Shown one piece after another: positions 17,765 to 57,499 of a DNA stretch of 64,000 bases; the first letter of the stretch is position 1; each line of letters begins with the position of its first letter. A program made the translations under genes and the position numbers. The notes beneath the pieces are model-generated. The model worked only from the letters and a program-made list of their open reading frames with translations. It did not search any database and was not told the DNA's origin. This stretch comes from Candidatus Levyibacteriota bacterium (GTDB lineage: Bacteria > Patescibacteriota > Microgenomatia > Levybacterales > UBA12049): NCBI GenBank assembly GCA_016182235.1, contig JACOXT010000004.1:28537-92536 (forward strand), read 5' to 3'.

Positions 17765-18097
17765 TTAATTTGACCCCAAAAGCTTTATTCCAAAAAATCC
17801 TCCTAAAAGACTTAATATAAATATTGTGAAGAAGATAACAAGTAACCCAATAATCGCGTATCTTAATCTTTCTCTGCCGTGAGCGAATCTTTCTTTATCT
17901 CCTCCTGATGTCATCATGTTGAATCCTGCAAGGAAGATGCTATAAACAGAAAAAATAAGCGCAGCAAGAATCAAAAATTCGATGACAACAGCAATGATAT
18001 TTTGGCCTCTTGGGAAAAGCCCGCCAGTCGGCACACCAGTTGGCAAGCCGATATCTATATTCGGAAATCCCGGTATTGAAAACGCAATCTTTTCCAT
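17765..18097 (-). CDS. T4SS pilin-like protein, paralog 3
   Basis: Carries the motif LAGFNMMTSGGDKERFAHGRERLRYAIIGLLVI. Confidence 0.65.
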   Translation of the reverse strand: MEKIAFSIPGFPNIDIGLPTGVPTGGLFPRGQNIIAVVIEFLILAALIFSVYSIFLAGFNMMTSGGDKERFAHGRERLRYAIIGLLVIFFTIFILSLLGGFFGIKLLGSN

Positions 18098-18098
18098 A

Positions 18099-18195
18099 TG
18101 ATTAATGATTGATGATTTCTGATTAATGAAAAAAATAATTATATTTTCTCAATTCTATATTCTTAAATCTTTAATCATTAATCTTAAATCAATTC
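18099..18195. repeat. Inverted pair of heptamer arrays forming a hairpin between two pilin genes
   Basis: The left arm is TGATTAA/TGATTGA/TGATTTC/TGATTAA (18099-18126). The right arm is TCTTAAA/TCTTTAA/TCATTAA/TCTTAAA/TCAATTC (18161-18195). The arms are mutually complementary. Confidence 0.8.
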
Positions 18196-20864: not shown

Positions 20865-21524
20865 CTATAAGTATAGTTTCTTTTGTATTATATACTCTTC
20901 AATCTTTTCCGGCACGAGGACGGTTATTGACTTTCCTTCTTTAACTCTTTTTCGTACTTCAGTGGATGAGATGTTAATTGGAATGAAATGTAGCCAAATT
21001 AGCTTCCCACCTCGAAGGTGGCCGAATGGACTCCTTCGAGGTGAACGAATGTGTCTCGAAACTATTATTAATCCAAACTTTTCTATTATTTCTCTCCAGT
21101 TCTTCCATTTTTTAAAATCTTTTATATTATCAGAACCGATTATCCAAAAGAAATGGTCACTTGGAGATTGTTTTTGCAAAGTTTTTAGAGTGTCAATAGA
21201 ATAACTCGTTGATTGTTTTCTAAGTTCTAGATCAGAGACTTCTATGTCTCTTTCGTCATTCTGGCTTGTCCAGAATCTCTTATTGCCGCTAGGGATTCTG
21301 GAGTCGCTCCGCTCCCCAGAATGACGTTTATAAAGTTCATTTGCTAGTAATTTTGCCATTTCGAGTCTGTGGCGAGAGATTGACATTTTTTTAGCAAAAG
21401 GGTGAATTCTCGCAGGCATCAGTATTACTTTTTGGATTATTTGAGATTTCAAAAGACATCTGGCAATTGCTAAATGACCATTGTGCGGGGGATCAAAGCT
21501 GCTACCCAAAATAGCGGTGTTCAT
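20865..21524 (-). CDS. nadD: Nicotinate-nucleotide adenylyltransferase
   Basis: GSSFDPPHNGHLAIA (HxGH motif) and ISSTEVR (the ISST motif). It contains two in-frame palindromic inserts. Confidence 0.85.
   Translation of the reverse strand: MNTAILGSSFDPPHNGHLAIARCLLKSQIIQKVILMPARIHPFAKKMSISRHRLEMAKLLANELYKRHSGERSDSRIPSGNKRFWTSQNDERDIEVSDLELRKQSTSYSIDTLKTLQKQSPSDHFFWIIGSDNIKDFKKWKNWREIIEKFGLIIVSRHIRSPRRSPFGHLRGGKLIWLHFIPINISSTEVRKRVKEGKSITVLVPEKIEEYIIQKKLYL
21008..21043. repeat. GC-rich palindromic element, short form, inside nadD
   Basis: It has the same 11-bp arms as the nadE element (CACCTCGAAGG 21008-21018, CCTTCGAGGTG 21033-21043) with a 14-nt loop. Confidence 0.8.
21254..21326. repeat. 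Nested palindromic element (CGTCATTCTGG ... CCAGAATGACG) inside nadD
   Basis: The outer 11-bp inverted repeats are at 21254-21264 and 21316-21326. Inner sub-hairpins include CTGGCTTGTCCAG. It is translated in frame as HSGERSDSRIPSGNKRFWTSQNDE. Confidence 0.75.
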
Positions 21525-21583
21525 GGTTTGTGCTTATTTTAACCCGTTTGGCCAATATTGGCAAGACGAAACAAGTTTAAAAT

Positions 21584-21646
21584 AATAGACGGTAGAAGAT
21601 GGAGGATAGAAGGTGGTATTTTGAAGATAGAAGATTGAGGATAGAC
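21584..21646. repeat. Purine-rich heptamer array (9 units), left arm flanking the four-helix-bundle ORF
   Basis: The units are AATAGAC GGTAGAA GATGGAG GATAGAA GGTGGTA TTTTGAA GATAGAA GATTGAG GATAGAC. Confidence 0.85.
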
Positions 21647-21648
21647 TA

Positions 21649-22011
21649 CTAAAAGGTTTTCCAGTTGTTTCGAAGATTAGTAAGTTTTCCTCCTAATAAC
21701 AGGTATCTATTGATAAGGTCGTTGCAAAAATTCTTTTCCCAAAAAACTAAATCTCTTGCCAAGCTGATATGGACTTCCATTTCATTACAAGATCCAATTG
21801 CTGAATCTAAATGCAGCTTGAATTGTTTATCAAATCTTCTTTTTGCCCAACCTTCTGCAATATTTGCAGGAACAGATTTAGAGGCTTTTCTTAACTGCAA
21901 GCCAAGGTCATTCCTTTCAAATAGGGGAAGTTTATTAACATTTCTATTAACTGTAAGAGCTAATTCGTAGGCTTCTTTATACACTTCCAAATCTCTAAAG
22001 CTCTTGATCAT
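21649..22011 (-). CDS. Four-helix-bundle protein (23S rRNA intervening-sequence protein family)
   Basis: 120 aa. FRDLEVYKEAYELALTV and ANIAEGWAKR motifs are typical of this family. Confidence 0.8.
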   Translation of the reverse strand: MIKSFRDLEVYKEAYELALTVNRNVNKLPLFERNDLGLQLRKASKSVPANIAEGWAKRRFDKQFKLHLDSAIGSCNEMEVHISLARDLVFWEKNFCNDLINRYLLLGGKLTNLRNNWKTF

Positions 22012-22026
22012 AAATAGAGTTTATAG

Positions 22027-22089
22027 TTTCTACCTTCCATCTTCAACCCTCAAAGTACTATCTTCTACCTTCTACTTTCTATCGTCTAA
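22027..22089. repeat. Pyrimidine-rich heptamer array (9 units), right arm, inverted relative to 21584-21646
   Basis: The units are TTTCTAC CTTCCAT CTTCAAC CCTCAAA GTACTAT CTTCTAC CTTCTAC TTTCTAT CGTCTAA. The reverse complement aligns unit by unit with the left arm at roughly 75% identity. Confidence 0.85.
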
Positions 22090-22202
22090 TCTCTGTCAGG
22101 TTCGCGGTCAGAAAAAAGTCAAGCTATTTAAGGAGTTTGGGAGTAGACTGCGGGCCATGATCCTTCGACAAGCTCAGGATCATACTGAACGGAGTTGAAC
22201 GT

Positions 22203-25200
22203 ATGAAACAGGAATTATTGAACCAAACCTTGACAAGCCCACCTCAAACACCCTATTCTAGGGATGGAGCTATTTTTATGGAGGTAGTGAAAGATATGCC
22301 TAATTCCGCAAACCAACCCAAAAACCCAGAGAGAACAGAAAATAGGCCTTTAGATAAAGTAAGGGTAGAAGTAAACAACACATCCAAAAAAGAAGAAACT
22401 TCTTCAAAATCTCCCCAGTCAGTTTCCGAAGAAAAGAAGGGGTCTCCTGTCGAAGCAAAAATTACAAAAGTCGATTCTAAAAAAATAGATAATGAGGAGT
22501 TAAGAAAAGAATGGCATAAAGTATTTACACCAGAAGAGTTAAAAAATCCCGATACAAGATCAACTATAGAATTAGCTATCAAACTGGGCTATAGTCCTGA
22601 GAGCATTACATCAAAAGGCCCATTGGAATTTAAAGCAAAAGATGTTATCGCAAATGCTTTACTTGATGATCAACAGCGCATTGAGAAGGCTGAAGAACTG
22701 CTTGGGCGATCTTTGTCAATAAAACAACGAGAATTACTTCTGAAAGCACACTATGCATCAAAAGGTAAGACTGGTAAAGATGGTCGTGGGGCAGGAGTGT
22801 TCAATTTAGAAAGAAAACAACTTGCAGAAGAAGCAAGGATACTTAGTAACGAAGAAGGTTTTACTGACAAAGAAAGACGTATACTTATTGAAGCTGGTCT
22901 AGCAGCAACTCTTATTCCTAATATCTATACGGATCCCACTTTGCAACTTATTGCCGAACAATACATTAATGAGGTAAACCGTATAAATGCAACTAATCCA
23001 AGTGAACATGTAGACCCCAATTTTCTCATTCGACTAATGACTGATGTTGAAAGACGAGCTCGTGACGGCCTAGTAGACAGAACGCAAGCACTAAATCTAC
23101 TAAATGAATTTCAAACCATATTTGCTGATGAGAATCCTGCTCAAGGAGAGAGCCCTTTGACTAGAGAGATTAATCTAATCAAAGGTCTGCAAGGACAAGA
23201 CAGAAGGGATGCATTACTTAATTTATTGAGGGCTTATCCTCCCCTGAGTGCTCCTTTACCGCACGAAATTATAGAATTAACAATGGAGGATGATGAATCC
23301 TTTGAATCCTTAGTCAATAGAATTGTTTCTCTTCCACTTGACAAAGAGACCTCTGACTATACTCTCGGACTCTATGGCTCAGGAAATCTTGAAACGATTA
23401 GCGATGCACTTACTCAAAAATTAGATACTGAGACAGATCCCGATGAGAGAGATAGACTTAGTAGGTTAAAAGATAGATTTAATCTGGCTACAGAATCATT
23501 TACTTTAACCCACAATATGAATACTCGAATAGTCACTGGAGAAATACAGGAATTTATTCGTACCGCGGAAAGAATTCTACCCCCTCATCTTAATTATCTT
23601 CAAAAATTAAACGGTGTAAGCGAAGCGATGAGAATTTATGAAGAAACCTATGATAGATATCTTGCAAAGTATGGATGGATGTATCCTTTTGCATCAGTAC
23701 TATTGCATTACGAAGTTTTCAGCAAGCTAAGAGAACTAAATGATGCGGGGGGGCTTGGCGTAGCAAAGGCAATGGATGGGGAACTAAGATTAATAAAACT
23801 GGAAGAGTGGGAGTTAAGAAGAGCATATAATATAGCAAGAAAATTTTATAACAATACATTTAGATCATCAGAAAAAGTTGCTACCGGGACAGTCCCTCGC
23901 AATATGGAAGGTGAGGAGAGACAGGAAATATTGGCAGAAATCCAAGACGCGATAGATTCAGGAAACACAAATAAAGAGGCTTTACTTAGAAATGAACTGG
24001 CTGACGCTGAAGAAAGGGGACAATCTAGGTATTCTTCTTTTGCGTTAGAATCAGCTGCCAGAATTATGAATCCAATACAGCTTCTTATATATCGTTTTCA
24101 AATAGCGGGTGAGGAACATGGATTGGTTTTCCTTAAAAAAGCAAAAGAGTACTATCTAGAATTTTTGAGACATAACTATAAACTTGGAATAAATAAAATA
24201 ACCACTCTTGGTGGGGTAAACGTTGAAGAGATGGAGGTTGGAGGAGTATTTGGGGTTTCAGGATTCTATAGTTCATGGAGAACAGAAAATATCGCCATAA
24301 GCCAGATGAAAGTTAATATTGGTGGACAGGAATTAACAATAAGAAGATGGTTAGCGGAAACTACATATGAAATTGAACAAGCTAATACGGCATTCAAAGA
24401 TGCAGGGCAGAATAGACAGTTAAAGCATAACGCGCAAGTACAATTAGCTGATGCCCTAAAGCCCCTTATTGATAATGTTCATGTTGGATTAGGCATGTTG
24501 TTAAGACAGCCAGCTTTTGGTGGTGAAATAGGTTATGAAGCAAGAAAGTTACTATGGGAGAAAATTGTGAAAGGAAATGATCCAGCAAACAATAATCCAA
24601 GGGAAGGAAATCTAGATGTAGCAATAAACTATTTAACAAAGTTAAAAATTCAGGATGGAAGTATAAGATCACTAGAAGAAATTAAATCAAGTGGTGGAAA
24701 TTATTGGGACGTTCCTTCAGGAGACCCATTGACGACTCCATGGGAAATACTGAGAAGAAAAATTCTTTTGCAACATCAGAAAAATATTAGGAAATCGTTT
24801 GATACTAATGTCAATTTAATTCCTGATCAAGATTTTGATGCAAATGAAACTCGTTTAATACTTACAATTAAAGAAGAAGGCAGAAAGCTCGCTCAACATC
24901 TGGCCGACATATCATTTCCATATGTACCCTTCATGAATGACGCGCCTTTCGAAATTTTTGATTATACGCTGGCAGGAGACGAGGTTTATAGAAGAAGGGC
25001 AGGAGGAGATATACCTAGCTATTTTGAAGGGTCTAACGCGTTTGTGGCTATTGTTGATAATCCTGGCGGAATTGGTGATGAAAAAGCAATGGAGAATTTC
25101 CTTAAGCTTGAAAGAGGAGTTGAATCTCCTCAAGGACGACCAGATGCCCAAAGAAGAACATACCCACTTTTTAAAGCTTGGCTAGAATGGGTAATGACCA

Positions 25201-25549: not shown

Positions 25550-27172
25550 TTAACGAAACATGCGTTTGAGTACTCCTTGTATTCCTTCAGCCTTAGTAGG
25601 AGAAGGCAATTTAGATTTATAGGCAACTATTGTCCCTACAGTTTCCCTACCTATTCCAATCGCACCTCCGACTGGTGCAAAAGCAGATCCGGTCTCAACC
25701 TTTGGAGCCTTGAGCATAGCTTTGAGCATGTTGACGACATTCGGCGTCATAAGAATAATGCCAAGCCCAATTAAAGCTCCGATATGATCTTCGTTGGCGC
25801 GGGCTCCAATAAGAGGAGGAACGAACAAGGTATTTTCCGGAAATCCGCCAAAAGCTGCCATAAATACTTTTCCAAGTAAAAACATGGCAATTACAGCAGG
25901 AAATGCGGCGAGATTTGCGATCAAATCTCGGAACCATCCTCCAACATTTATCGGACTTCCAGGAATTAATCCGCCAATAATCCAAAATGGTGCTAAGATA
26001 ACATCAATTAATATATGAACATAAGCAAAAAGAAGAGTAAACCAAAGTCTAAAAAGAGCAATTAAAAGTGCAATTGAGATTATTATAAAAGCAAGAAATC
26101 CAACAAACGTACCTAGTACTACGTGAAGCATTTTGAATAGTATATCTGCAACTGCATTTGTTGCTACATTTTCTATATTGGTAATCCAATTAAGAGGGTT
26201 CCACCATGTGCCTCCTTCGCCTGCACCAGGAAGAGCCACACCAACAACTACTTTAGACACAAATGTAGAAAAACTATTTAAAAAAGGGTCATAAAAATTT
26301 GCAAGAACTTCACTAATTGCTAGAGAAGGTTCTTCTATAAGCCTCCACATTCCACCATAAGCATTTCCTCCTCCTGCGCCAACTTCTGCTGCTGCTGAGA
26401 AAGGATTAGTTTTTTGTGAAAGTTGCGTAGGAAGACTTTTGTCTAATCCAGCGGAATCAACAATAAGATTACCAATTACATGAGTTGATACATACATCAT
26501 GTCTATCAAAAACCCCGCTATAGCATAGGAAAAAGTTACAAGAAGTATGCCGATTATAATTTTGGGTATCTGGTTTTGGATAGACATTACAGTTCTAGGA
26601 TCAATTTTTACTCTAAGCATAATTGCGAGTCCTATAACAACAAATACCAAAACAAAGAAAAGATAAACGATATTTCTAAATCCTTCCCACACCCTTAGAA
26701 GTGGTTTAAGTCCTTCAAACCCAGTTCCTGTTTGAGCATAAGCTATTTTTGAAATACCGAAATTCTGCGCCAGATATTGAAAATAGTCGCCGGTACGAAG
26801 AGGGGGAGTATAAAGAGAGGCTATCAAATTGTTCATTCCTCCAATTGCTCCTCCAATCTCTCCTTTTTCCAAATCCCCTTTTGGCAAAAAACCAATTTTT
26901 CCTGTTTTCGGATCAGCTCCAAGGCAGGTGCCTTTGGGATTTGTAGGATCAATGCCTGAAATCTGGCAGGAAAGCGCGCTTGCTACCTCAATCATCACAG
27001 TCTGAGTCCAGTTATGTAAGTTATTTGGAACTTCGGGGTTGGTATTGGGAGGTGGAGGATTTATTCGGGGAAGCTCTTGAGCATTGACTGAAGTAGGAAG
27101 TAGGAAGTATGAAGTAAGAAGTAAGAGAGCAGAGAAAATGAAAACAAAAAGGAGTCGGGCAGGAATTTTCAT
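25550..27172 (-). CDS. VirB6/TrbL-like polytopic membrane protein
   Basis: 540 aa with a signal peptide and then at least 6 TM helices. The size and topology match T4SS channel subunits found next to VirB4 in Gram-positive/CPR loci. The assignment rests on context and topology only. Confidence 0.5.
   Translation of the reverse strand: MKIPARLLFVFIFSALLLLTSYFLLPTSVNAQELPRINPPPPNTNPEVPNNLHNWTQTVMIEVASALSCQISGIDPTNPKGTCLGADPKTGKIGFLPKGDLEKGEIGGAIGGMNNLIASLYTPPLRTGDYFQYLAQNFGISKIAYAQTGTGFEGLKPLLRVWEGFRNIVYLFFVLVFVVIGLAIMLRVKIDPRTVMSIQNQIPKIIIGILLVTFSYAIAGFLIDMMYVSTHVIGNLIVDSAGLDKSLPTQLSQKTNPFSAAAEVGAGGGNAYGGMWRLIEEPSLAISEVLANFYDPFLNSFSTFVSKVVVGVALPGAGEGGTWWNPLNWITNIENVATNAVADILFKMLHVVLGTFVGFLAFIIISIALLIALFRLWFTLLFAYVHILIDVILAPFWIIGGLIPGSPINVGGWFRDLIANLAAFPAVIAMFLLGKVFMAAFGGFPENTLFVPPLIGARANEDHIGALIGLGIILMTPNVVNMLKAMLKAPKVETGSAFAPVGGAIGIGRETVGTIVAYKSKLPSPTKAEGIQGVLKRMFR
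27090..27124. repeat. Heptamer array GAAGTAG x5 inside the VirB6-like signal-peptide region
   Basis: The units are GAAGTAG GAAGTAG GAAGTAT GAAGTAA GAAGTAA. On the minus strand they are translated as LLLTSYFLLPTS. Confidence 0.85.
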
Positions 27173-27234: not shown

Positions 27235-27525
27235 TCATTCGACGTGGCGTCCCGTCGGATGACGGGACGGACCCCCTCTTTTTATAATATCACGGTACTG
27301 TTGTTTTAGCATACGTATACCCTCTGTAGATTTCAGATACTTTTCTCTTCTGATCGCATCACTCTTCAACAGATAAGCTTCATAGCCAATAAGCTTAACA
27401 GGTCTGGAACTTTTTGTTGATTTAACTTTACCGCTTTGATGATCTTTAATTCTTAGTCGTAAATCGTTTGACTGGCCTTTATAAATATTTCCACTTGATA
27501 ACATCAGGAAATAAACATAGTGCAT
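27235..27525 (-). CDS. GIY-YIG domain protein (UPF0213-like small nuclease)
   Basis: It has YVYFLMLSSGNIYKGQSNDLRLRIKDH (GIY...YxG) and an REKYLK motif. Its start codon is 2 nt from the tRNA-Ser(GGA) 3' end. Confidence 0.8.
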   Translation of the reverse strand: MHYVYFLMLSSGNIYKGQSNDLRLRIKDHQSGKVKSTKSSRPVKLIGYEAYLLKSDAIRREKYLKSTEGIRMLKQQYRDIIKRGGPSRHPTGRHVE

Positions 27526-27526
27526 G

Positions 27527-27613
27527 CGGTGAGGGAGGGATTCGGACCCTCGATAGTCTTACGACTATGCACGCTCTCCAAGCGTGTCGATTCAACCGCT
27601 CTCGCACCTCACC
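27527..27613 (-). tRNA. tRNA-Ser(GGA)
   Basis: The acceptor is GGTGAGG/CCTCACC and the anticodon stem-loop is CACGC-TTGGAGA-GCGTG. It has a long variable arm and the T-loop GGTCCGAATCC. CCA is not encoded. Confidence 0.85.
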
Positions 27614-28052
27614 TTATTATTTTTTTGGCTTCTTGCCAAACTTTTTTGTCCGATGGGTAAGTCAGTCTTTTTTCAACCACATCTATTGGCAGCCATTCAA
27701 CATTTTCCATCTCCAGATCATGCTTACTTATATCGCCAGAAACATATTTCATTAGAAAATAATACACTTTTTTCTTGATTGTCTCATTCTGAAATTTAAA
27801 CCAATATTCTACCGGAGTTAGAGCCTTAATAATTTTCGCATCAACTCCTGTTTCTTCTCTGACTTCCCTAAGTGCTGCTTCCTCTTTTGTTTCTCTTCTT
27901 GATTCCTGATTCCTAATTCCTGATTCCTTCTTATCGATTAATCCTTTTGGAAAAACCCATCCATGATGTTGAGAGTGCTGCGCAACCAAAATAAATGTCT
28001 GGCCACTTTCTTTTTTATAAACTACTCCTCCAGCTGAAAATTGAAATTTCAT
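27609..28052 (-). CDS. NUDIX hydrolase
   Basis: The Nudix box is split by an insert: FPKGLIDKKE-[SGIRNQESRR]-ETKEEAALREVREETG. The stop codon overlaps the tRNA-Ser(GGA) 5' end. Confidence 0.8.
   Translation of the reverse strand: MKFQFSAGGVVYKKESGQTFILVAQHSQHHGWVFPKGLIDKKESGIRNQESRRETKEEAALREVREETGVDAKIIKALTPVEYWFKFQNETIKKKVYYFLMKYVSGDISKHDLEMENVEWLPIDVVEKRLTYPSDKKVWQEAKKIIR
27899..27926. repeat. Heptamer array TGATTCC x4 inside the NUDIX gene
   Basis: The units are TGATTCC TGATTCC TAATTCC TGATTCC. Confidence 0.85.
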
Positions 28053-28054
28053 AG

Positions 28055-28129
28055 TGTCCCCGGCGGGAGTTGAACCCGCAAATCTTCAGGTTCGGAACCT
28101 GACGCTCTATCCAATTGAACTACGAGGAC
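28055..28129 (-). tRNA. tRNA-Arg(CCG)
   Basis: GTCCTCGTAGTTCAATTGGATAGAGCGTCAGGTTCCGAACCTGAAGATTTGCGGGTTCAACTCCCGCCGGGGACA. The anticodon loop is TTCCGAA. Confidence 0.85.
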
Positions 28130-28136
28130 TCCAATG

Positions 28137-28222
28137 CGGAGAGAGTGAGATTCGAACTCACGGTCGCCTAAGGCGACAGCGGTTTTCGAAACCGCCGCAC
28201 TCGTCCACTATGCGATCTCTCC
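28137..28222 (-). tRNA. tRNA-Ser(CGA)
   Basis: The acceptor is GGAGAGA/TCTCTCC and the anticodon loop is TTCGAAA. It has a long variable arm and the T-arm GTGAGTTCGAATCTCAC. Confidence 0.85.
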
Positions 28223-28241
28223 CATTTTCGACTTTCTTTGG

Positions 28242-28314
28242 TGTGCCCGGTGGGAGTTGAACCCGCAATCGCTGGGTCCGCAACCCAGTGCTCTATCCAT
28301 TAAGCTACGGGCAC
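28242..28314 (-). tRNA. tRNA-Arg(GCG), with a C-A mismatch in the T stem
   Basis: GTGCCCGTAGCTTAATGGATAGAGCACTGGGTTGCGGACCCAGCGATTGCGGGTTCAACTCCCACCGGGCACA. The anticodon loop is TTGCGGA. Confidence 0.7.
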
Positions 28315-28315
28315 A

Positions 28316-28432
28316 GAGAGTAGAAAACAGAAAGTAAAAAGCTGAAGGTAGATTATTGGAAATGTTTAACTCCATCCTCTAGCTTCTATCATCAAAATAC
28401 TATCTTCTACCTTCCATCTTCCACCGTCTATT
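28316..28432. repeat. Heptamer-array hairpin without cargo (6 purine-rich units, 12-nt spacer, 9 pyrimidine-rich units)
   Basis: The left arm is GAGAGTA GAAAACA GAAAGTA AAAAGCT GAAGGTA GATTATT (28316-28357). The right arm is CTCCATC CTCTAGC TTCTATC ATCAAAA TACTATC TTCTACC TTCCATC TTCCACC GTCTATT (28370-28432). The right arm closely matches the reverse complement of 21584-21646. Confidence 0.85.
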
Positions 28433-28469
28433 TTATCCTATTGCAGATTATGAAGCAAATTTGACTAGA

Positions 28470-29096
28470 TTAACTTGTCTTTTCCAGGGGGAAATTGCGG
28501 GATAGCCAATCGCCGGATTTCTCCATGAATGTTGGTTTTATATATTCCCTATACGGAAGATAGGGGAGTAAGGCTGTCTTAATATGTTCTCGATCTACAT
28601 TCCCAAGCGTCAATGTTAATTCGCCGGGAATAAATGAATGAGTTCGTATATGAACAACATCTACTCCCTCTCTTTTTTTAAAGTAGAAGTCATATAATTC
28701 CTGCCAGAGGAAAAAATGATCCTCTATTGTTAGTCCTTCTGTACTTATTCTATAGCGGAAATTTGAAGGCGGAACCGTATTTAAGGCAAAAGCGACAAAC
28801 ACTAAAGACGCAACAACAAGCATCAAGAGGTATTGAGAAAATAGAAAAAGAATAATTTCAATAAGAAGCATTATTAGAATACTTGTTAAATAATATTGAC
28901 TGCCTCTTTTTCTAAAAGGTCTCCCGGGAGCACTCCACTCAAGTAGTGTTTTAATCTCATGTAGGTTATCGTCATGATGAATATTTTTAGTTTGCTGAGG
29001 ATCATTTTTGTCAACTTGAGGCTCAGAAAGCTCGAGAGGCTCTTTGGGGAGATCCAAGGGCTCTTTTGGAAGAAAAGGTTGTTCTTGAGCAGCCAT
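28470..29096 (-). CDS. Hypothetical 2-TM membrane protein (PH-like C-terminal domain)
   Basis: 208 aa, with an N-terminal repeated PKEPL(D/E)L, a central TM hairpin and a soluble C-domain. Confidence 0.5.
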   Translation of the reverse strand: MAAQEQPFLPKEPLDLPKEPLELSEPQVDKNDPQQTKNIHHDDNLHEIKTLLEWSAPGRPFRKRGSQYYLTSILIMLLIEIILFLFSQYLLMLVVASLVFVAFALNTVPPSNFRYRISTEGLTIEDHFFLWQELYDFYFKKREGVDVVHIRTHSFIPGELTLTLGNVDREHIKTALLPYLPYREYIKPTFMEKSGDWLSRNFPLEKTS

Positions 29097-29164
29097 ACAT
29101 TTATAGTATAGCAGTATTTAGTATTAGTCAAGATAAGAGAATGATGATATAATAAGTTTGTCTG

Positions 29165-29254
29165 GGAGGAGTCGCATAGCTTGGTCAATTGCGAGGGTTT
29201 GCTAAACCCTTGAGCAATAAAATGCTCGCGTGGGTTCGAATCCCACCTCCTCCG
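29165..29254 (+). tRNA. tRNA-Ser(GCU)
   Basis: The acceptor is GGAGGAG/CTCCTCC and the anticodon loop is TTGCTAA. It has a long variable arm and the T-arm GTGGGTTCGAATCCCAC. Confidence 0.85.
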
Positions 29255-29277
29255 CTTCACCCCGCTAAGCGGGGTAG

Positions 29278-29364
29278 GGAGAGGTCGCATAGTGGCCGAG
29301 TGCGGATGTCTTGAAAACATCTAAGATAGTAATATCTTCGCGAGTTCGAATCTCGCCCTCTCCG
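29278..29364 (+). tRNA. tRNA-Ser(UGA)
   Basis: The acceptor is GGAGAGG/CCTCTCC and the anticodon stem-loop is GATGT-CTTGAAA-ACATC. It has a long variable arm and the T-arm GCGAGTTCGAATCTCGC. Confidence 0.85.
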
Positions 29365-29390
29365 CCCTCAATTTCTGCTAAACTGATTCC

Positions 29391-41237: not shown

Positions 41238-43445
41238 CTAATTGTTTTTTATTAGGCTAGTTGATTTGGGAACAAAATTACAGTTGACAAGATTTTCTGT
41301 TCCTTGCATAAAATATTCTTCTCTTCCTAAGCATTTTTTCTTCACTACGCTAGACGGTATAACTATCTTGGTATTTTCTGAATTAGCAATAAGGTTAGTC
41401 ATTATATTATTCCAAATTGGCGCTGCGCCTGTGATGCCGGAAGCAAGATTTTGACTCATTGGAGAATTATCATTATTTCCTACCCATACGCCAACGACAT
41501 AGTGAGGCGTGTAGCCGATAGTCCAGTTATCTCTTTTATTGTCTGAGGTTCCTGTTTTAACTGAGACATTGTGGTTTGGAATATTAAGTGGAGAGTTGGA
41601 GCCAAATTCCATTTCGCGCGCTTTGTTATCAGAAAGAATATCTGAGATAATAAAAGCGACTCCCGGGTCAACCACCTCTTGTTTTTCGCTATTTGACGGA
41701 TCTTTTTTCTCCTCTAGTATATTTCCCTGCGAATCAGTAAGTTTAAGAATTGGATTAAGATCAACCCTATATCCGCCATTTGCAAGAACGCCATATACAG
41801 TCGCCATATCTATCATTTTTACCTCGGCTCCTCCTAATGTGATTGCTAAGCCGTAAGAATTTGGGTCTTTCCATGTTGTAATCCCCATCTCTCGGCCCAG
41901 ATTAACCATCGTTGGTATTCCAATTTTTGAAAGAACTTTTATGGCTGGAATATTTATTGAATTCCCCAAGGCTTGCCTTAACGTTACTAATCCATGGAAC
42001 TTGCCATCATAGTTAACAGGTGAGTATGGAGGGCTGCCCAGAGTTCTGTATGTAATAGGGCTGTCGTCAAGAATTGTCGCGGCAGTAAATCCTTGAGTAA
42101 GAGCAGCGGCATAGGTTACGACTTTTATGCTTGATCCTGGTTGTCGAAGCGCAGTAGTTACGTTAAAATTCCCAACATTAGGTTCTTGGTAGTCGCGGCT
42201 TCCAACCATTGATATTATGTCTCCATTCTTGGGATTAGTAACAAGGGAAGCTCCGTTTGTTAGATTAAGATACTCATTTTTTTCTACTTCTGCTTTTAGA
42301 ATTTTTTCGACCATTTCTTGTGTTTTAAGATCAATACTTGTTATCACTCTAAGTCCGCCTTTCTCGACCATCCCCAATCCATATTTTTTAACAAGATGCT
42401 CTTTCACATACATAACAAAATGAGGAGCGTGAATCGGGACCTCTTTATTAAAAAAAACAAGTTTTTCTTTAATAGCGTCTTCTTTTTGTTTAGAATTTAT
42501 ATATCCCAATTGGTTCATTTTTGTCAAAACTTCCACTTGACGTTTTTTCCAAAGATTTTGGGATTCTCCATATGGAGAATAAAGAGTTGGGGCTCTTGTT
42601 AATCCTGCTAAAAACGCACTTTGGGCAAGATTAAGATTCTTTATTGGTTTATCGAAATATACCTCAGCCGCAGAAGCAGCGCCCCAAGCAGTCCCTCCAT
42701 ATGGAATACGATTAAAATACATTTCCAGGATTTGATCTTTTGTATAGATTCTCTCTGCCCAAAATGCTAAGATTATTTCTTTAATTTTTCTTTTTACGCT
42801 GATTTCAGAAGTTAGTAAAGTTGATTTAATGAGCTGTTGAGTGATGGTCGAACCTCCTTGCAAGGGTTGTCCTGATAAATCAGCGATTGCTGCTCGAATA
42901 ATTGCAGAAATATCAAAGCCTGAATTGGAATAAAAGTTTTTATCTTCAGCTGCAATTGTGGCTTGCTGTAGATAGATAGAGATAGACTCTAAGGGCACTA
43001 AGGTTCTATTTTGACTTGTGTAGATTTGGTAAAGTAGAGTTCCATTTCTATCAAATAACTTTGTAGTAAGAGGAGCCTCCTGAAAATCCAACTCCTTGGG
43101 ATGAGGCAGTTCTTGTAAGAAAAGAATTAAAAGTAGCGGAAGGAAAACAAAAATAAAAGAGAAAATAGAGCCAATAACAAAATACTTAATTTTATATCTA
43201 ACAGGCAAAGGGAAGATGTTGATTTCTTTTACTCGTCTTTTACTTTTTGTTTTTAAACCAAGAGTTTTTTTGCGGCTTAATCCAAACTTTATCTTAATCT
43301 TTAAAATTAGCTTAAAGATTTTTTTTGTTGCCCTAGAGACAAACTTGAATATAAATATAGTAATATCTCCAGTGCCAATAAGGATTTTTATAAATAAAGC
43401 AAGAATATTAACAATGATATCCATATTTGAAAGGAATAGAGCCAA
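41238..43445 (-). CDS. Class A penicillin-binding protein (PBP1A-type glycosyltransferase/transpeptidase), copy 1
   Basis: GT51 motifs are AAEDKNFYSNSGFD, GGSTITQQL and RKIKE. The TP motifs are SSIK (SxxK) and KTGTS. Confidence 0.9.
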   Translation of the reverse strand: MALFLSNMDIIVNILALFIKILIGTGDITIFIFKFVSRATKKIFKLILKIKIKFGLSRKKTLGLKTKSKRRVKEINIFPLPVRYKIKYFVIGSIFSFIFVFLPLLLILFLQELPHPKELDFQEAPLTTKLFDRNGTLLYQIYTSQNRTLVPLESISIYLQQATIAAEDKNFYSNSGFDISAIIRAAIADLSGQPLQGGSTITQQLIKSTLLTSEISVKRKIKEIILAFWAERIYTKDQILEMYFNRIPYGGTAWGAASAAEVYFDKPIKNLNLAQSAFLAGLTRAPTLYSPYGESQNLWKKRQVEVLTKMNQLGYINSKQKEDAIKEKLVFFNKEVPIHAPHFVMYVKEHLVKKYGLGMVEKGGLRVITSIDLKTQEMVEKILKAEVEKNEYLNLTNGASLVTNPKNGDIISMVGSRDYQEPNVGNFNVTTALRQPGSSIKVVTYAAALTQGFTAATILDDSPITYRTLGSPPYSPVNYDGKFHGLVTLRQALGNSINIPAIKVLSKIGIPTMVNLGREMGITTWKDPNSYGLAITLGGAEVKMIDMATVYGVLANGGYRVDLNPILKLTDSQGNILEEKKDPSNSEKQEVVDPGVAFIISDILSDNKAREMEFGSNSPLNIPNHNVSVKTGTSDNKRDNWTIGYTPHYVVGVWVGNNDNSPMSQNLASGITGAAPIWNNIMTNLIANSENTKIVIPSSVVKKKCLGREEYFMQGTENLVNCNFVPKSTSLIKNN

Positions 43446-43545: not shown

Positions 43546-45735
43546 TTAGTTAGGGGCAGAGGTGGGATTTTGTTCTCCGGTTGGGGTGGGATGAGGACAA
43601 GTTATACAGTATGGTTCGCCAGCTGCGTCGTTTATTAAAACTACTTCTTTTTCTTCAATATTCTCTGTTTGGTTTGGCTTTGCAAGATCCTGAGTTGTTT
43701 TATCTATTCTAACTTTTTGTAGTCCTTCTTCCTGTTTTTTGGGCTCAGTGCCTTTTAGGAAATATTCAAATCTAGTTTCACATTTTTCCCCATCCGATTT
43801 AGGAAGAAGCCCCGAAATTGAGCAGATACTCTTTTGGATGACGTTTGGCGGCCGCGGCAGGGGTTCTATAGGCTTGTCTTTCAAAAGATAAGTCATGATC
43901 TCGTTCCAAATTGGTGCTGCCCCTGTAACTCCGGAGGTAAGTCTACCCATGGGGGTGTTGTCATTGTTGCCAACCCAAACAGCAACCACAAAAGAAGGAG
44001 TATAGCCAATAGTCCAATTATCGCGAAGGTCATTGGTGGTTCCGGTTTTTACAGAAACAGTTCGGTCTGGTATTCGAAGGGATGAGTTTGACCCAAAGGC
44101 CATCATGCGTGAGTTATTATCAGCTAGAATATCAGAAATAATAAAAGCAACGCCTTCGGGAAGAACTTTCTTACCAAAAATTGGAGAAGAAAGAGGTTTA
44201 TATTCTTCCAGAACTTTTCCGCGACTATCGGTAATCTTAAGAATTGGATGAAGATTAATTCTATACCCTTGATTTGCAAAGACTGCGTAACTTTCTCCCA
44301 TATCAAGCATGGTAACTTCTCCTCCTCCCAAAGTTAGAGAAAGTCCGTATCTGTCAGGATCGTCAAAACTAGTAATTCCCATAGCCGACGCAGTTGAAAT
44401 CATGCTTTGTATGCCGTTAAGCTTTAGCATCTTCACTGCAGGGATATTTATAGAATTTCCCAAAGCATAACGCATCTGAACTACACCATGCCAATTCCCG
44501 TCATAATTGACAGGACAATAGTTTTTACCATCCAGAGTCGGAAAGCAGACAGGAGCGTCGATAAAAGGAGTCGCGGCAGTGTATCCTTTTATGAGTCCTA
44601 CAGCATAATTAACAGGTTTTATCGAAGATCCAGGCTGACGAAGCGAAAGAACAACATTTACATTGCCGTCTATTGAGTCGTCAAAATAGTCCCGGCTTCC
44701 AACCATTGCCAAAATTTCTCCAGTTCCCGGGATAGTCACCAAGGCTGCTCCATTGGTAACATGATAGCCGGCAAGCTCTTCAATATTTTTTTTGACAGTT
44801 TTTTGGGCGAAATCTTGAATTTCATAGTCAAGGCTTGTAATAACGTTTAACCCCCCCTCTTCTACTAGTTTTTCGCCGTACTTTTTGACCAACAGATCTT
44901 TTATATAAAGAACAAAATGGGGAGCAAGAATATTGTCATAAGCTGGCTTAAATTTAAGCTTTTGCTTTAGAGCTTTTTCTTTCTGAGAGACTGTTATATA
45001 TTTTTGCTCGTACATTTTGTTAAGAATTAGGGTTTGGCGTTTTTTGGCAAATTCCGGATGAGCCCCATATGGAGAGTTGGTAGTTGGAGATTCGGGTAAC
45101 CCAGCCAAAAGAGCGCTCTCTGCAAGATCTAAGCTGCTTGTTGACTTACCAAAATACGTTTGCGCTGCTGCTTCAATTCCCCAGGCAGTCCCCCCATATG
45201 GAACTTGATTAAGATACATTTCAAGTATTTTGTCTTTTGGATAGATTGCTTCAGTTACAAAAGATAAAATAACTTCTTTAATCTTTCTTGAGATAGTTCT
45301 CTCTGGAGTTAACAAACTGTTTTTGACTAATTGTTGGGTTAAAGTAGATCCGCCTTGAAGCTCTCTACGAAATATTATTGAAACTAAAGATCTAGAAATA
45401 GCTCGAAAATCTATTGCCCCATGAGAGTAGAAATCTTTGTCTTCAATAGCAATAGTTGCTTCACGCACATGTTTTGGAATTGACGATAGCGGAATAAATT
45501 TTTGATTTCTTGAGGAGTAAATGGAGTAGAGAAGACGTTTATTTCTGTCAAAAATTTGAGTAGATTGTGCGAAATCTAGGCTATTTAACTTTGTGGGAAA
45601 AGGTAAATCTTTTAAAATGAAAAGATAAAAAAGCATTGAAATCGTAACAAAAGCAATTAGTAAAAACCATAGCTTCTTTTTTAAGCGCAACGAAAAGATA
45701 CTTTTGTTTTTTTTCGAGTGCGGGAAGCTTTGCAT
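43546..45735 (-). CDS. Class A penicillin-binding protein, copy 2
   Basis: GT51 motifs are AIEDKDFYSHGAID, GGSTLTQQL and RKIKE. The TP motifs are SSIK and KTGTT. Confidence 0.9.
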   Translation of the reverse strand: MQSFPHSKKNKSIFSLRLKKKLWFLLIAFVTISMLFYLFILKDLPFPTKLNSLDFAQSTQIFDRNKRLLYSIYSSRNQKFIPLSSIPKHVREATIAIEDKDFYSHGAIDFRAISRSLVSIIFRRELQGGSTLTQQLVKNSLLTPERTISRKIKEVILSFVTEAIYPKDKILEMYLNQVPYGGTAWGIEAAAQTYFGKSTSSLDLAESALLAGLPESPTTNSPYGAHPEFAKKRQTLILNKMYEQKYITVSQKEKALKQKLKFKPAYDNILAPHFVLYIKDLLVKKYGEKLVEEGGLNVITSLDYEIQDFAQKTVKKNIEELAGYHVTNGAALVTIPGTGEILAMVGSRDYFDDSIDGNVNVVLSLRQPGSSIKPVNYAVGLIKGYTAATPFIDAPVCFPTLDGKNYCPVNYDGNWHGVVQMRYALGNSINIPAVKMLKLNGIQSMISTASAMGITSFDDPDRYGLSLTLGGGEVTMLDMGESYAVFANQGYRINLHPILKITDSRGKVLEEYKPLSSPIFGKKVLPEGVAFIISDILADNNSRMMAFGSNSSLRIPDRTVSVKTGTTNDLRDNWTIGYTPSFVVAVWVGNNDNTPMGRLTSGVTGAAPIWNEIMTYLLKDKPIEPLPRPPNVIQKSICSISGLLPKSDGEKCETRFEYFLKGTEPKKQEEGLQKVRIDKTTQDLAKPNQTENIEEKEVVLINDAAGEPYCITCPHPTPTGEQNPTSAPN

Positions 45736-48509: not shown

Positions 48510-49616
48510 ATGAATCTGTCAACAATAGAAAAAGTTAATGTTTCCGGTAAAAGGGTTTTTGTGAGAGCGGATTTGGATGTTCCTCTTTCCGAGACACGAG
48601 ATTCGCAACACGAGACACGAAAAATTGAGGATGAGACGAGGTTGAGAGCTGTGATGCCGACAATTGAGTATCTTCTGGGGCATAGAGCAAAGGTTATTGT
48701 TGGAGGACATTTGGGGAGACCGGAAGGATTTGATAAGAGTTTAAGCCTTGAGCCAGTCGCGAAATGGTTAAGTATTAAGTATAAAGTATTAAGTATAAAG
48801 TATGGAAAACGCGGGGAATTTGACGGGTGGGAAATAACTCCAGATCTTTTCATTCTGGAGAACTTAAGATTTTATAAAGGCGAGGAGGCCAATGATCTTA
48901 ATTTTGCAAAAAAACTGTCAAGCTTGGCAGACGTTTATGTTAACGACGCGTTTGCGATGTCGCATAGAAATCATGCCTCAATTGTCGGGATAACAAAATT
49001 TCTGCCTCATTATGCTGGTTTTCATTTGGCAAAAGAAATAGAAATGTTAGGTAAAGCTATGGATAATCCAAAGAGACCGCTTGTTGTAATTATAGGAGGC
49101 AAAAAAATTGAAACTAAGCTTCCGTTAGTTCATAGGATGCATGAAATTGCCGACTATGTGCTTGTTGGGGGAAAAATTGCCCAAGAATCCAAAGTTCTTC
49201 TGAAAGAACAGCACTCAAAATTAACCGGAAAGAAATCAGTGCTTTTAGTTGCAGATTCCAACAGTGACAAGTCAGACATAACAGAACAAGATGCTGAAAA
49301 TTTTTTGCAAATCATTAATACAGCGCGTACTGTTATTTGGAATGGAAGTATGGGGATAATAAGTGAAAAGCGAAAAGTGAAAAGCGAAAAGAATGATACA
49401 GAGAGGGGAACGCGCTTGATCGCTAAGGGCATTATGGAGAGCGGCGCTTATTCTGTGGTTGGCGGAGGAGATACGGTTGAATTTTTAAATAAACTGGGAA
49501 TTTTAGATAAATTTTCTTTTACCTCAACAGGCGGAGGAGCAATGCTAGCGTTTTTAAGTGGTGAAAAACTTCCAGGCATCGAAGCCCTGTTAAATAACGG
49601 GCTATATCACGCTTAA
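48510..49616 (+). CDS. pgk: Phosphoglycerate kinase, with three in-frame heptamer-array inserts
   Basis: Motifs are VRADLDVPL, LENLRFYKGEE, FAMSHRNHAS, GGKKIETKL, WNGSMG and GGGD(T). Inserts lie at 48591-48618, 48769-48803 and 49361-49388. Confidence 0.9.
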   Translation: MNLSTIEKVNVSGKRVFVRADLDVPLSETRDSQHETRKIEDETRLRAVMPTIEYLLGHRAKVIVGGHLGRPEGFDKSLSLEPVAKWLSIKYKVLSIKYGKRGEFDGWEITPDLFILENLRFYKGEEANDLNFAKKLSSLADVYVNDAFAMSHRNHASIVGITKFLPHYAGFHLAKEIEMLGKAMDNPKRPLVVIIGGKKIETKLPLVHRMHEIADYVLVGGKIAQESKVLLKEQHSKLTGKKSVLLVADSNSDKSDITEQDAENFLQIINTARTVIWNGSMGIISEKRKVKSEKNDTERGTRLIAKGIMESGAYSVVGGGDTVEFLNKLGILDKFSFTSTGGGAMLAFLSGEKLPGIEALLNNGLYHA

Positions 49617-56416: not shown

Positions 56417-57499
56417 ATGATTCGGGTTGCGATTAATGGATATGGAAGGATAGGCAGAGTTGCTCACAGAGTAATTTTGGAAAAGCATTCCTCAGAAATT
56501 GATGTTGTTGCTATAAATGCCGGTTCTTCTACTGATATAAAAGGATGGATGTACCTGCTTCGGTATGATTCTTCGTATGGAATACTTCAGAATCATACCT
56601 TGAATTTCCAATTTCCAATTTCCAATTTCCAATCAAATCAAAATAATCAATTTTCAAATGTTCAAAATAGAGATGACTATATTGGCTCACTTATCATTGA
56701 CAGCAAAAAGATTCCGGTATTTTCGCAGAAGGACCCGAGTCTTTTGCCTTGGCGAGATTTAAATGTCGACGTAGTCATTGAGTCAACCGGGCATTTTACC
56801 ACAGAAGAAAAGCTTAAGACTCATATTACAGCTGGAGCGAAAAAGGTACTTTTGTCAGCTCCGGCAAAAGGTGGAGAAGTTTCGACTTATGTCCTCTCGG
56901 TCAATGATAAGGATTATAAAGGAGAGTCTCTTATAAATAATGCCTCATGTACAACAAATTGTATTGCGCCAGTTGCTAAGATAATGGTTGCTAATTTTGG
57001 AGTGGAGAAGGCAATGATGACGACAATTCATGGCTATACATCTGACCAAAGACTCCAAGACGGGGGGCATAAAGACTACAGGCGTGCGCGGGCGGCAGGA
57101 GAAAATATTGTTCCAACATCAACCGGAGCAACAATCGCGGCAAGTGAAGGAGTTCCGGAGCTTAAGGGAATATTTTCTGGATTGGCAATTAGAGTTCCGG
57201 TTCCGGTTGGGTCACTTTCGGATTTTACCTTTCTTCTTAAAAAAAATACAACTGTTGAAGAGATAAATGAAGTAATGAGAAGCGAAGCTCAAAATCCTAC
57301 ATATAATGGTATATTAGAAGTAACAGAAGATCCAATTGTTTCTTCAGATATAATCGGTAACTCTCACTCCTCAATCGTTGATTTGTCTCTTACTCAAGTT
57401 GTCGGCGGAAACATGGCTAAAGTTATTGCCTGGTATGACAACGAGTATGGATATGCAAATAGATTGGTGGAAGAAGTAGTTATGGTTGGAAAATCATAG
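56417..57499 (+). CDS. gap: Glyceraldehyde-3-phosphate dehydrogenase, with an in-frame heptamer-array insert
   Basis: Motifs are INGYGRIGR, the catalytic SCTTNC, WYDNEYGY. An insert of about 25 aa (LNFQFPISNFQSNQNNQFSNVQN) follows LLRYDSSYG. Confidence 0.9.
   Translation: MIRVAINGYGRIGRVAHRVILEKHSSEIDVVAINAGSSTDIKGWMYLLRYDSSYGILQNHTLNFQFPISNFQSNQNNQFSNVQNRDDYIGSLIIDSKKIPVFSQKDPSLLPWRDLNVDVVIESTGHFTTEEKLKTHITAGAKKVLLSAPAKGGEVSTYVLSVNDKDYKGESLINNASCTTNCIAPVAKIMVANFGVEKAMMTTIHGYTSDQRLQDGGHKDYRRARAAGENIVPTSTGATIAASEGVPELKGIFSGLAIRVPVPVGSLSDFTFLLKKNTTVEEINEVMRSEAQNPTYNGILEVTEDPIVSSDIIGNSHSSIVDLSLTQVVGGNMAKVIAWYDNEYGYANRLVEEVVMVGKS
56604..56668. repeat. Heptamer array ATTTCCA x4, then degenerate (A/T)TCAAAT-like units, inside gap
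   Basis: ATTTCCA is exact four times (56604-56631). The 7-nt periodicity then continues in degenerate form to about 56668. Confidence 0.85.

Follow-up and report, generated by a model that had tools for sequence, protein, structure and literature searches.

In a 64,000-nt stretch of contig JACOXT010000004.1 from a Candidatus Levyibacteriota bacterium (hereafter, the window), a small gene of the PF05635 family lies in the loop of a potential hairpin whose two arms are built of seven-nucleotide repeats, which raises the question of why such a gene and such repeats should occur together. The original prediction for this locus, made from the sequence alone, was a mobile module resembling the intervening sequences (IVSs) of 23S rRNA genes. 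Here, comparison of homologous loci shows that framing by complementary heptamer arrays is usual for PF05635 genes across phyla. With a probability of roughly 0.55, we propose that the window copy is an IVS-type self-folding cassette with its own promoter, one of a large family of palindromic heptamer-array elements from the candidate phyla radiation (CPR), most of which carry no gene.

Each 63-nt arm comprises nine units of 7 nt that are of the GRTDGAR type, the central one being irregular (GTAYTTTGA; Table 1). On the minus strand, the units of the 5′ arm read TTAGAC, GATAGAA, AGTAGAA, GGTAGAA, GATAGTA, CTTTGAG, GGTTGAA, GATGGAA and GGTAGAA. The two arrays, nine plus nine complementary heptamers as first described, contain a 60-nt inverted repeat (21586-21645 and 22029-22088) that is 75% Watson-Crick complementary, with its halves 383 nt apart. 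The distance to the neighbouring arm is 15-17 nt for the start codon (5′ arm) and 2-3 nt for the stop codon (3′ arm), as originally stated. Allowing up to two mismatches, a three-heptamer pattern had 13 matches in the window, all of them in the two arms and in a third array at 28370-28432, compared with 0.11 expected from shuffled sequences; the window has two loci with this pattern, the cassette and the hairpin without an open reading frame (ORF) described below. When the arms were joined by a tetraloop and folded as RNA, the free energy was −60.6 kcal/mol for the plus strand (z = −9.1) and −49.2 kcal/mol for the minus strand (z = −5.3); folded as DNA, it was −21.8 kcal/mol (z = −4.0), and in folds of the whole 536-nt region the arms paired with each other on either strand. 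Since the arms fold this far below their shuffled controls, the objection that they might form no stable duplex falls away.

The enclosed 120-aa protein matches the Pfam profile PF05635 (23S rRNA IVS protein) with 80.8 bits (cut-off 33.8, E = 1e-22) and the profile TIGR02436 (four helix bundle protein) with 76 bits (cut-off 24, E = 2.5e-21), and it matches in sequence the Xanthomonas protein XCC0516, whose structure is 2GSC (E = 5.6e-9). An AlphaFold2 monomer model has four long helices (predicted local distance difference test, 95.4), and a Foldseek search with this model gave template modelling (TM) scores of 0.86-0.92 for 2GSC, about 0.8 for BT_0352 (2RLD) and 0.58-0.63 for Avd (4DWL; probability 0.97), the last at a sequence identity of only about 6%. 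A Q/R...S...N..EG motif in helices 2-3 is conserved, and an alignment, members from Xanthomonadales included, shows no variation at Q39, R41, S46, N50, E53 or G54. These profile and structure matches, together with the fold, bear out the assignment to the 23S rRNA IVS family, and the window protein is a member of the family of XCC0516, S23p and Avd. An identical protein has been deposited for a genome of Candidatus Levybacteria, a CPR/Patescibacteria group. Neither Pfam nor Foldseek found a nuclease, recombinase or polymerase fold or a transposase domain in it. The design of an ORF within a hairpin does occur outside any rRNA here, as proposed: there is no rRNA gene within the 64-kb window, and the neighbours are nadD-nadE, which lie downstream in the gene's own orientation, and, on the other side, a 1099-aa ORF that runs divergently. 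The latter has no Pfam match of any kind, reverse transcriptase included. Avd of diversity-generating retroelements has a related four-helix-bundle fold; the locus differs from such an element and is not one, because no reverse transcriptase is found among the neighbours (nadD/nadE and the 1099-aa ORF) and repeat scans show no template/variable repeat pair near the gene. Readings as CRISPR, diversity-generating retroelement or integron attC site were dropped, given a 7-nt period without spacers, repeats on both sides, and no reverse transcriptase or cas gene nearby. An intrinsic terminator (a GC-rich short stem followed by a T run) is likewise a poor description: a generic scan of 21400-22300 called no terminator-like site.

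Homologues were scanned in one genome per species, which gave 79 loci with protein identities from 89% down to 35%; 76 of the genes had full flanks. In most of the 76, which come from Patescibacteria (CPR), Planctomycetota, Omnitrophota, Deltaproteobacteria, Xanthomonadales and other groups, the gene is flanked on either side by complementary heptamer arrays. Over all 76 loci, the autocorrelation was 0.43 at lag 7 in upstream and downstream flanks alike and 0.40 at lag 14, compared with about 0.28 at other lags. The purine fraction was 0.66 in the 110 nt upstream and 0.40 in the 110 nt downstream, and the flank complementarity score was 46 within a locus versus 20 for shuffled partners. The median arm is 60 nt long with 72% Watson-Crick pairing, and the median 3′ arm begins 2.5 nt past the stop codon, the median 5′ arm ending 18 nt ahead of the start. 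A stem of 7-nt repeats, which the original prediction had pointed out for this one gene, is therefore usual for the family across phyla. A minority of distant homologues (about 35-45% identity, such as L061, L070, L072 and L078) show little or no arm complementarity, and two Flavobacteriales loci have a complete heptamer hairpin downstream of the gene, not around it.

Could the arrays be ordinary simple-sequence repeats, possibly with phase-variable expression, whose inverted arrangement has no function? Heptanucleotide repeats are a common class of bacterial simple-sequence repeats (PMC4679880, PMC4692102), the number of units varies between Coxiella strains (PMC4990558), and other heptamer arrays of the window lie inside coding genes. 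However, the imperfect, non-identical units would be a poor substrate for slippage, and both arms have the mirrored irregular centre and conserved outer ends across genomes. In addition, heptamer arrays less than 80 nt apart around the 79 loci follow the order purine-then-pyrimidine in 25 cases versus 1, and the arrangement recurs around most homologues in many phyla. We consider slippage very improbable, and neither chance nor plain slippage is tenable as a full explanation.

The sequence of the unit differs between lineages. In CPR classes the arms carry GATAGAA/GGTAGAA or GCTAGAA/GTTAGAG/ATTGGAA; GCAAGAA, GTCAGAA, GTAAGGA and GTGAGAA units are found in Omnitrophota, Planctomycetota, Deltaproteobacteria, Elusimicrobia and Flavobacteriales. 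Divergent second paralogues in CPR loci have units of their own (AATGGAA, AAAGTTA, TAACCAT, AGCGTCT, AACAGTA and TTAAGAA), and in the paralogue at L013 the purine/pyrimidine polarity of the arms is reversed. Where clear arrays stand on both sides, both arms mostly carry the unit of the lineage, and they usually change together. Because the units vary by lineage and paralogue, what is universal is a period of 7 nt in an inverted arrangement rather than any fixed sequence. Second PF05635 genes at L005, L008, L009, L014 and L048 occupy a conserved site directly after an ORF ending in ...ILKIPGF and before a conserved AATTCCCGG... sequence, each copy with its own heptamer type.

The cassette type of the window also occurs in or beside the 16S or 23S rRNA genes of CPR bacteria, at seven loci (L019, L020, L022, L023, L025, L027 and L030). 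Their proteins are 67-73% identical to the window protein and their arms have the same GRTAGAA units, which makes the window copy an IVS-type module that stands outside rRNA. The rRNA-linked cassettes share conserved flanks beyond the arms, including a GATATAGTC element, and these flanks give matches to group I intron models that stay below the gathering score. Flanks of this kind also surround another paralogue, at L040, whose arms are made of AACAGTA units. That the arms pair as RNA is indicated most clearly by a strand bias in the rRNA-linked copies: mismatches between the arms that would be compatible with G-U pairing numbered 61 in the rRNA sense versus 20 on the other strand, and 7 of 8 copies were biased in this direction. 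Within the 23S rRNA gene at L025, positions 1615-1755 give weak matches to plant microRNA precursor models, which suggests another long hairpin insertion in that rRNA.

With the 23S IVSs that hold an S23p/PF05635 ORF (Leptospira, Coxiella, Brucella and the Xanthomonas type), the window cassette shares the protein family, an ORF enclosed by terminal inverted repeats that form a long stem, and close CPR relatives in or beside rRNA genes. In the Coxiella IVS, three to four GACAGAT units precede the start of S23p in tandem, and RNase III cuts the stem at the first of them (PMC4990558), the only earlier hint of heptamer stems that we found. The window copy differs in that it lies in no rRNA, hence not in helix 25/45, but between nadD and the 1099-aa gene; its 63-nt arms consist wholly of heptamers and it appears to have its own promoter; and purifying selection on its protein is strong, in contrast to the Coxiella ORF, which is reported to be decaying.

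The evidence for a promoter comes from the 43 non-rRNA CPR homologues. A TANNNT hexamer begins at exactly −12 in 23 of the 43 and at any other offset in only 0-5, a peak of TTGANN lies 35-37 nt upstream of the start (18 cases), and Shine-Dalgarno-like motifs are present in only 2 of the 43. The generic promoter scan did not call a cassette promoter in the window. From the geometry of TTGAAG, TAAACT and ATG (Table 1), a leaderless mRNA that starts at the start codon is predicted; such an mRNA would lack the 5′ arm, and the ORF would lie in a loop only in read-through transcripts.

These observations fit the following picture of a self-folding cassette. In a read-through transcript, the two arms would fold into an imperfect stem of about 60 bp, and the insert would be tolerated in rRNA, in operons (accBC) and in intergenic spacers because the stem would draw its two flanks close to each other. 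RNase III may then cut the stem and release the cassette from the host RNA, on the model of the 23S IVSs of Coxiella, Leptospira and Salmonella; an RNase III signature motif was not found in the 64-kb window, which is uninformative for the whole genome. The gene itself would be expressed from a sigma-70-type promoter in the inner 5′ arm, and since its leaderless mRNA would lack this arm, that mRNA would escape the hairpin.

Several results weigh against this picture. The G-U strand bias is absent outside rRNA (49 versus 58 for ++ flanks and 34 versus 27 for -- flanks), and the ORF-less hairpins described below have no consistent stability bias towards the transcribed strand. With these strand tests null outside rRNA, selection at the RNA level is supported for the rRNA-linked copies only. 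A GTG start in 9 of the 43 non-rRNA CPR genes is a poor fit to leaderless translation. Arm identities between loci were compared without gaps, gapped global identity having been rejected as a measure because unrelated outer flanks scored 71%. In this comparison, the 5′ arm of the window is identical to that of L002 at 57 of 63 positions and the 3′ arm to that of L014 at 56 of 63. At third codon positions, these gene pairs reach an identity of only 46-54%, a range at which arm identities of up to 79% between genomes are also seen. An arm is 87-90% identical to the same arm elsewhere, compared with a complementarity of 46/63 (73%) to its own partner. As the arms are closer to their counterparts than complementary to their partners, they appear to be under constraint beyond pairing. 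Within the CPR subfamily, the pairing score is 50 with the own partner and 45 with arms of other loci (p = 7e-4); because the own partner barely beats these, the complementarity arises largely as a by-product of the consensus that both arms follow, with only weak compensatory change at individual loci. Heptamer arrays align in several registers. Pairing by itself does not account for a repeat unit of 7 nt.

The same results can be read in terms of binding. If the arrays were periodic sites for a ring-shaped oligomer on single-stranded RNA or on DNA, with a role in autoregulation of the gene, whose start and putative promoter lie next to or inside the 5′ array, the complementarity of the arms would come from the two orientations of the sites. 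TRAP (trp RNA-binding attenuation protein) binds spaced triplets on single-stranded RNA in such a manner, iterons are the DNA counterpart, and the relative Avd binds nucleic acid. This account would explain arms that are better conserved than the pairing between them and own-partner pairing only weakly above that across loci, as well as the strict 7-nt period, the NNNRGAA core that is common to most lineages with the other positions variable, the separate heptamer type of each paralogue and the putative promoter inside the array. Relatives of the protein are homopentameric, as described for 2GSC (PMC4990558). However, counts of 3-4 units in Coxiella and Xanthomonas, 8-10 in CPR and up to 16 in one deltaproteobacterium do not relate to a pentamer, some paralogue heptamers lack the RGAA core, the polarity at L013 is reversed, and the G-U strand bias of the rRNA-linked copies indicates real RNA pairing. 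As the explanation of the arms, we judge binding unlikely.

Binding would also suit the arrays of Xanthomonadales. Located with the 2GSC sequence, the PF05635 gene XCC0516 of Xanthomonas campestris sits between accB and accC. Its upstream array reads GGGAATC, GGGAGTG, GAGAATC, GGGAATC, and its downstream array, CATTCCC, CATTCTC, GACTCCC, TATTCCC, lies directly before the ATG of accC. Dyella has the same layout and the same GGGAATC unit, which is thus kept in both genera among proteins whose identity to XCC0516 is about 70-85% in each case. XCC0516 is annotated to start at a GTG (L081 1441) inside the upstream array, and accB-accC, the host in Xanthomonas and Dyella, is an essential operon. The heptamer GGGAATC occurs at about 186 Xanthomonas sites, 70 of them as convergent or inverted pairs, and its function is unknown (Rehm et al., PMC4692102); this report makes no mention of XCC0516 or accBC. 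It belongs to a set of dispersed bacterial heptanucleotide repeats, with GGGGAYT in Nostoc and TAACTGA in Beggiatoaceae and cyanobacteria, that are intergenic, often in convergent pairs and of unknown function; they are discussed in terms of G-quadruplexes or regulation and are not linked to PF05635 (PMC4692102, PMC4679880). The arrays described here resemble them in the 7-nt unit, and the Xanthomonas gene is framed by exactly GGGAATC. In contrast, the GRTAGAA units of the window are AT-rich and cannot form G-quadruplexes. A literature search found no statement of a general link between PF05635 and heptamer arrays, which does not prove that the link is unpublished.

The third array of the window belongs to a hairpin without an ORF, which was originally taken for an empty copy of the cassette. 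Its reverse complement is 53/63 (84%) identical to the left arm of the cassette, including the outer end AATAGACGG and the central TTTTGA, and read directly it is 47/63 identical to the right arm. In the alignment of the third array with the left arm, the occupied and ORF-less copies have two limits in common, the outer boundary and the inner end of unit nine, the shared boundaries that an empty copy should have. The same hairpin without cargo does exist, with its base abutting the 5′ end of tRNA-Arg(GCG) at 28314, but it is weak and its partner arm is short and degenerate. As minus-strand RNA it reaches −39.7 kcal/mol (z = −3.5), mainly through G-U pairs; as plus-strand RNA (z = −0.3) or as DNA of either strand it folds no better than its shuffles. 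Since only the minus-strand RNA beats the shuffles, this copy is best described as a decayed or RNA-only version, and in the cassette picture it would be a decayed ORF-less member, with the 3′ end of a protein gene on one side and a tRNA cluster on the other. It lies about 25 nt past the stop codon of a 208-aa gene, and the neighbouring genes are all on the minus strand. Rfam had no match at this locus or at the cassette. The tRNA island at 27526-29366 has genes for Ser, Arg, Ser and Arg on the minus strand and for Ser and Ser on the plus strand; a GIY-YIG gene (27235-27525) and a NUDIX gene are interspersed with them, and its opposite-strand tRNA-Ser genes register as inverted repeats (pairs I1 and I11).

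ORF-less copies with the same ends are common in metagenomes. A scan with the outer arm motif TAGACGRTRGAWGRTRGARG gave 80 loci, including 20 chance matches that lacked an array and 11 loci truncated at a contig end. The PF05635 gene was present at 4-5 loci, compared with at least 15 compact ORF-less hairpins and about 10 more in weaker versions, so that hairpins without the gene outnumber those with it by at least 3:1 in this sample. In the compact hairpins, the partner arm begins 58-73 nt after the start of the arm itself, and among 20 that were folded, free energies ranged from −40 to −72 kcal/mol for the matched strand and reached −83 kcal/mol for the other. They lie mostly between genes, often 0-20 nt past a stop codon, and share the outer ends TAGACGR...YCGTCTA with the gene-bearing hairpins. 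At none of 24 metagenome loci with such a hairpin does the hairpin adjoin a tRNA gene, and tRNA adjacency was rejected as a general trait of these hairpins. Three complete GRTAGAA hairpins, each of about 135 nt or about 45 residues (T[VI]DD...HHLPS), stand in frame in the ORF of a 612-aa glutamate dehydrogenase at L128 (2054-3892, identical to L124), and hairpins also lie inside long ORFs at L154 and L164.

So many copies without a gene raise another possibility, namely that the palindrome is an element at the level of DNA, of the kind of MITEs (miniature inverted-repeat transposable elements), REPINs (hairpins formed by paired repetitive extragenic palindromic, or REP, sequences) or Rickettsia palindromic elements. 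The gene copy would then be autonomous, its protein would spread or maintain the ORF-less copies, and the RNA stem would be a side effect. RAYT (REP-associated tyrosine transposase) genes are flanked by REP sequences in a like layout, and Correia elements of Neisseria are RNase III substrates. As in REP/REPIN-RAYT systems and in MITE-like palindromes (Correia/nemis and the Rickettsia elements), a gene is framed by the repeat, and many gene-less palindromes lie mostly just after genes; as with Rickettsia palindromic elements, some copies stand in frame within ORFs, which is the case for the three hairpins in glutamate dehydrogenase; two more lie inside other long ORFs. Such an element would also fit different subfamilies with different heptamers at the same site in shared flanks (L040 versus L019 and L023), the cassette beside nadD/nadE in three arrangements, one of them inverted, and a Xanthomonas gene framed by a heptamer with many inverted pairs elsewhere in the genome.

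Other results speak against movement of this kind. The only gene associated with the palindromes encodes a small bundle of helices, neither an HUH nor another transposase, whose fold is not that of a nuclease, recombinase or polymerase; the arms consist of tandem 7-nt units; and inspection of the ends of 20 hairpins, which read A-rich/TAGACG...CGTC(T)A, revealed no consistent direct repeat or target-site duplication. Between cassettes of different genomes, dN is 0.09-0.22 and dS is saturated, with a median dN/dS of 0.11 where computable. The low dN/dS and saturated dS indicate that the protein is functional and that the copies are old rather than recently transferred. At L014 the synteny is that of the window (540-aa gene, 1099-aa gene, cassette, nadD, nadE); the cassette protein is 89% identical over residues 17-120, NadD only 33% and NadE 68%. 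The L014 cassette protein appears truncated or frameshifted at its N-terminus. The cassette of L012 (1848-2207) adjoins nadD in inverted orientation relative to 21649-22011 of the window, which an inversion between the arms would yield, and at L002 the cassette follows nadE. Synteny is kept across Xanthomonadales as well. The third array of the window is 53/63 identical also to a hairpin from an unrelated metagenome, hence no closer to the occupied arm, and intragenomic copying of this array was rejected on that ground. Phage carriage was rejected too, no relatives having been found in viral contigs. Taken together, with dS saturated and the gene order shared by one or more further genomes, these data give no hint of recent movement. 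Of the mobile IVS-like module first proposed, the IVS-type module stands, with its rRNA-linked relatives; its mobility is presumed indirectly, from the range of contexts and the in-frame insertions. We regard an element spread as DNA by its gene copy as rather unlikely, and neither this account nor binding is exclusive of the self-folding cassette.

A further proposal, tentative and in our view rather improbable, would join these accounts across phyla: PF05635 proteins and heptamer palindromes may form a single two-part system in which the protein acts on the arrays and the gene copy is the master. The protein would bind 7-nt arrays as RNA or single-stranded DNA and perhaps promote their spread or maintenance, in a manner like that of RAYTs and REPINs and with no known catalytic fold. 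If the protein does act on heptamer arrays, the combined system would be of a new kind. To our knowledge, PF05635, a large and widespread family for which structures have been solved, has no known function except in the Avd branch, and we know of no accepted origin for rRNA intervening sequences, which have been known since about 1990. The PF05635 family, these intervening sequences and the heptanucleotide repeats of bacteria are suggested to be facets of one thing. If true, the two-part system would explain the origin of the rRNA IVSs, a role for S23p/Avd-like proteins outside retroelements, and the abundance of heptanucleotides in Xanthomonas, cyanobacteria, CPR bacteria and others. The Xanthomonas gene in the accB-accC operon, framed by the well-mapped GGGAATC, makes the question testable in a tractable organism.

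Table 1. Coordinates of the cassette, the ORF-less hairpin and the GGGAATC-framed genes (window positions unless a locus is named).
Feature	Position	Strand	Remarks
PF05635/TIGR02436 four-helix-bundle gene, 120 aa	21649-22011	minus	ATG 22011-22009; stop 21651-21649
5′ arm (gene orientation), nine purine-rich heptamers on minus strand	22027-22089	minus	Repeat and pattern scans
3′ arm (gene orientation), nine pyrimidine-rich heptamers on minus strand	21584-21646	minus	Starts 2-3 nt past stop codon
Putative −35-like TTGAAG, within 5′ arm	22041-22046	minus	Inferred from cross-locus TTGANN peak at −35 to −37
Putative −10-like hexamer TAAACT	22018-22023	minus	6 nt ahead of ATG; 17-nt spacer to TTGAAG
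Long arm of ORF-less hairpin	28370-28432	minus	Minus strand reads AATAGACGGTGGAAGATGGAAGG...; 53/63 identical to plus-strand 21584-21646
Spacer between arms of ORF-less hairpin, 12 nt	28358-28369	no strand	
Short degenerate partner arm of ORF-less hairpin, about 5.5 units	28316-28357	minus	Purine-rich on plus strand
PF05635 gene framed by GGGAATC arrays, accB-accC (Xanthomonas)	L081 1424-1872		
PF05635 gene framed by GGGAATC arrays, accB-accC (Dyella)	L085 1484-1930		

Several other repeats were observed in the window. The pgk gene (48510-49616) has three in-frame arrays with a period of 7 or 14 nt at 48590-48624, 48774-48814 and 49352-49401 (CGAGACA..., ATTAAGTATAAAGT twice and AAGTGAAAAGCGAA twice), which look like small protein insertions, and Pfam matches PGK in two stretches of the product. 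Four TTTCCAA units lie at 56593-56639 inside a GAPDH-like ORF (56417-57499), four units of the GGAATCA type lie at 27883-27941 on the coding strand of the NUDIX ORF (27609-28052), and an array at 27077-27145 overlaps the signal-peptide region of a 540-aa ORF; the heptamer types of these three arrays differ from those of the cassette arms. An AT-rich inverted repeat at 18097-18186 (pair I6) has TGATTAA-like units in arms of 34 nt, 76% complementary and 22 nt apart, and its fold is modest, about −19 kcal/mol on both strands. Dense direct repeats with spacings of 15, 33, 36, 42 and 75 nt at 52230-53510 (D1-D4) probably encode a repetitive protein, and the stretches 41391-42265 and 43885-44762, about 2.5 kb apart and 71-77% identical (D5, D9, D10 and D14), are probably tandem paralogous genes.

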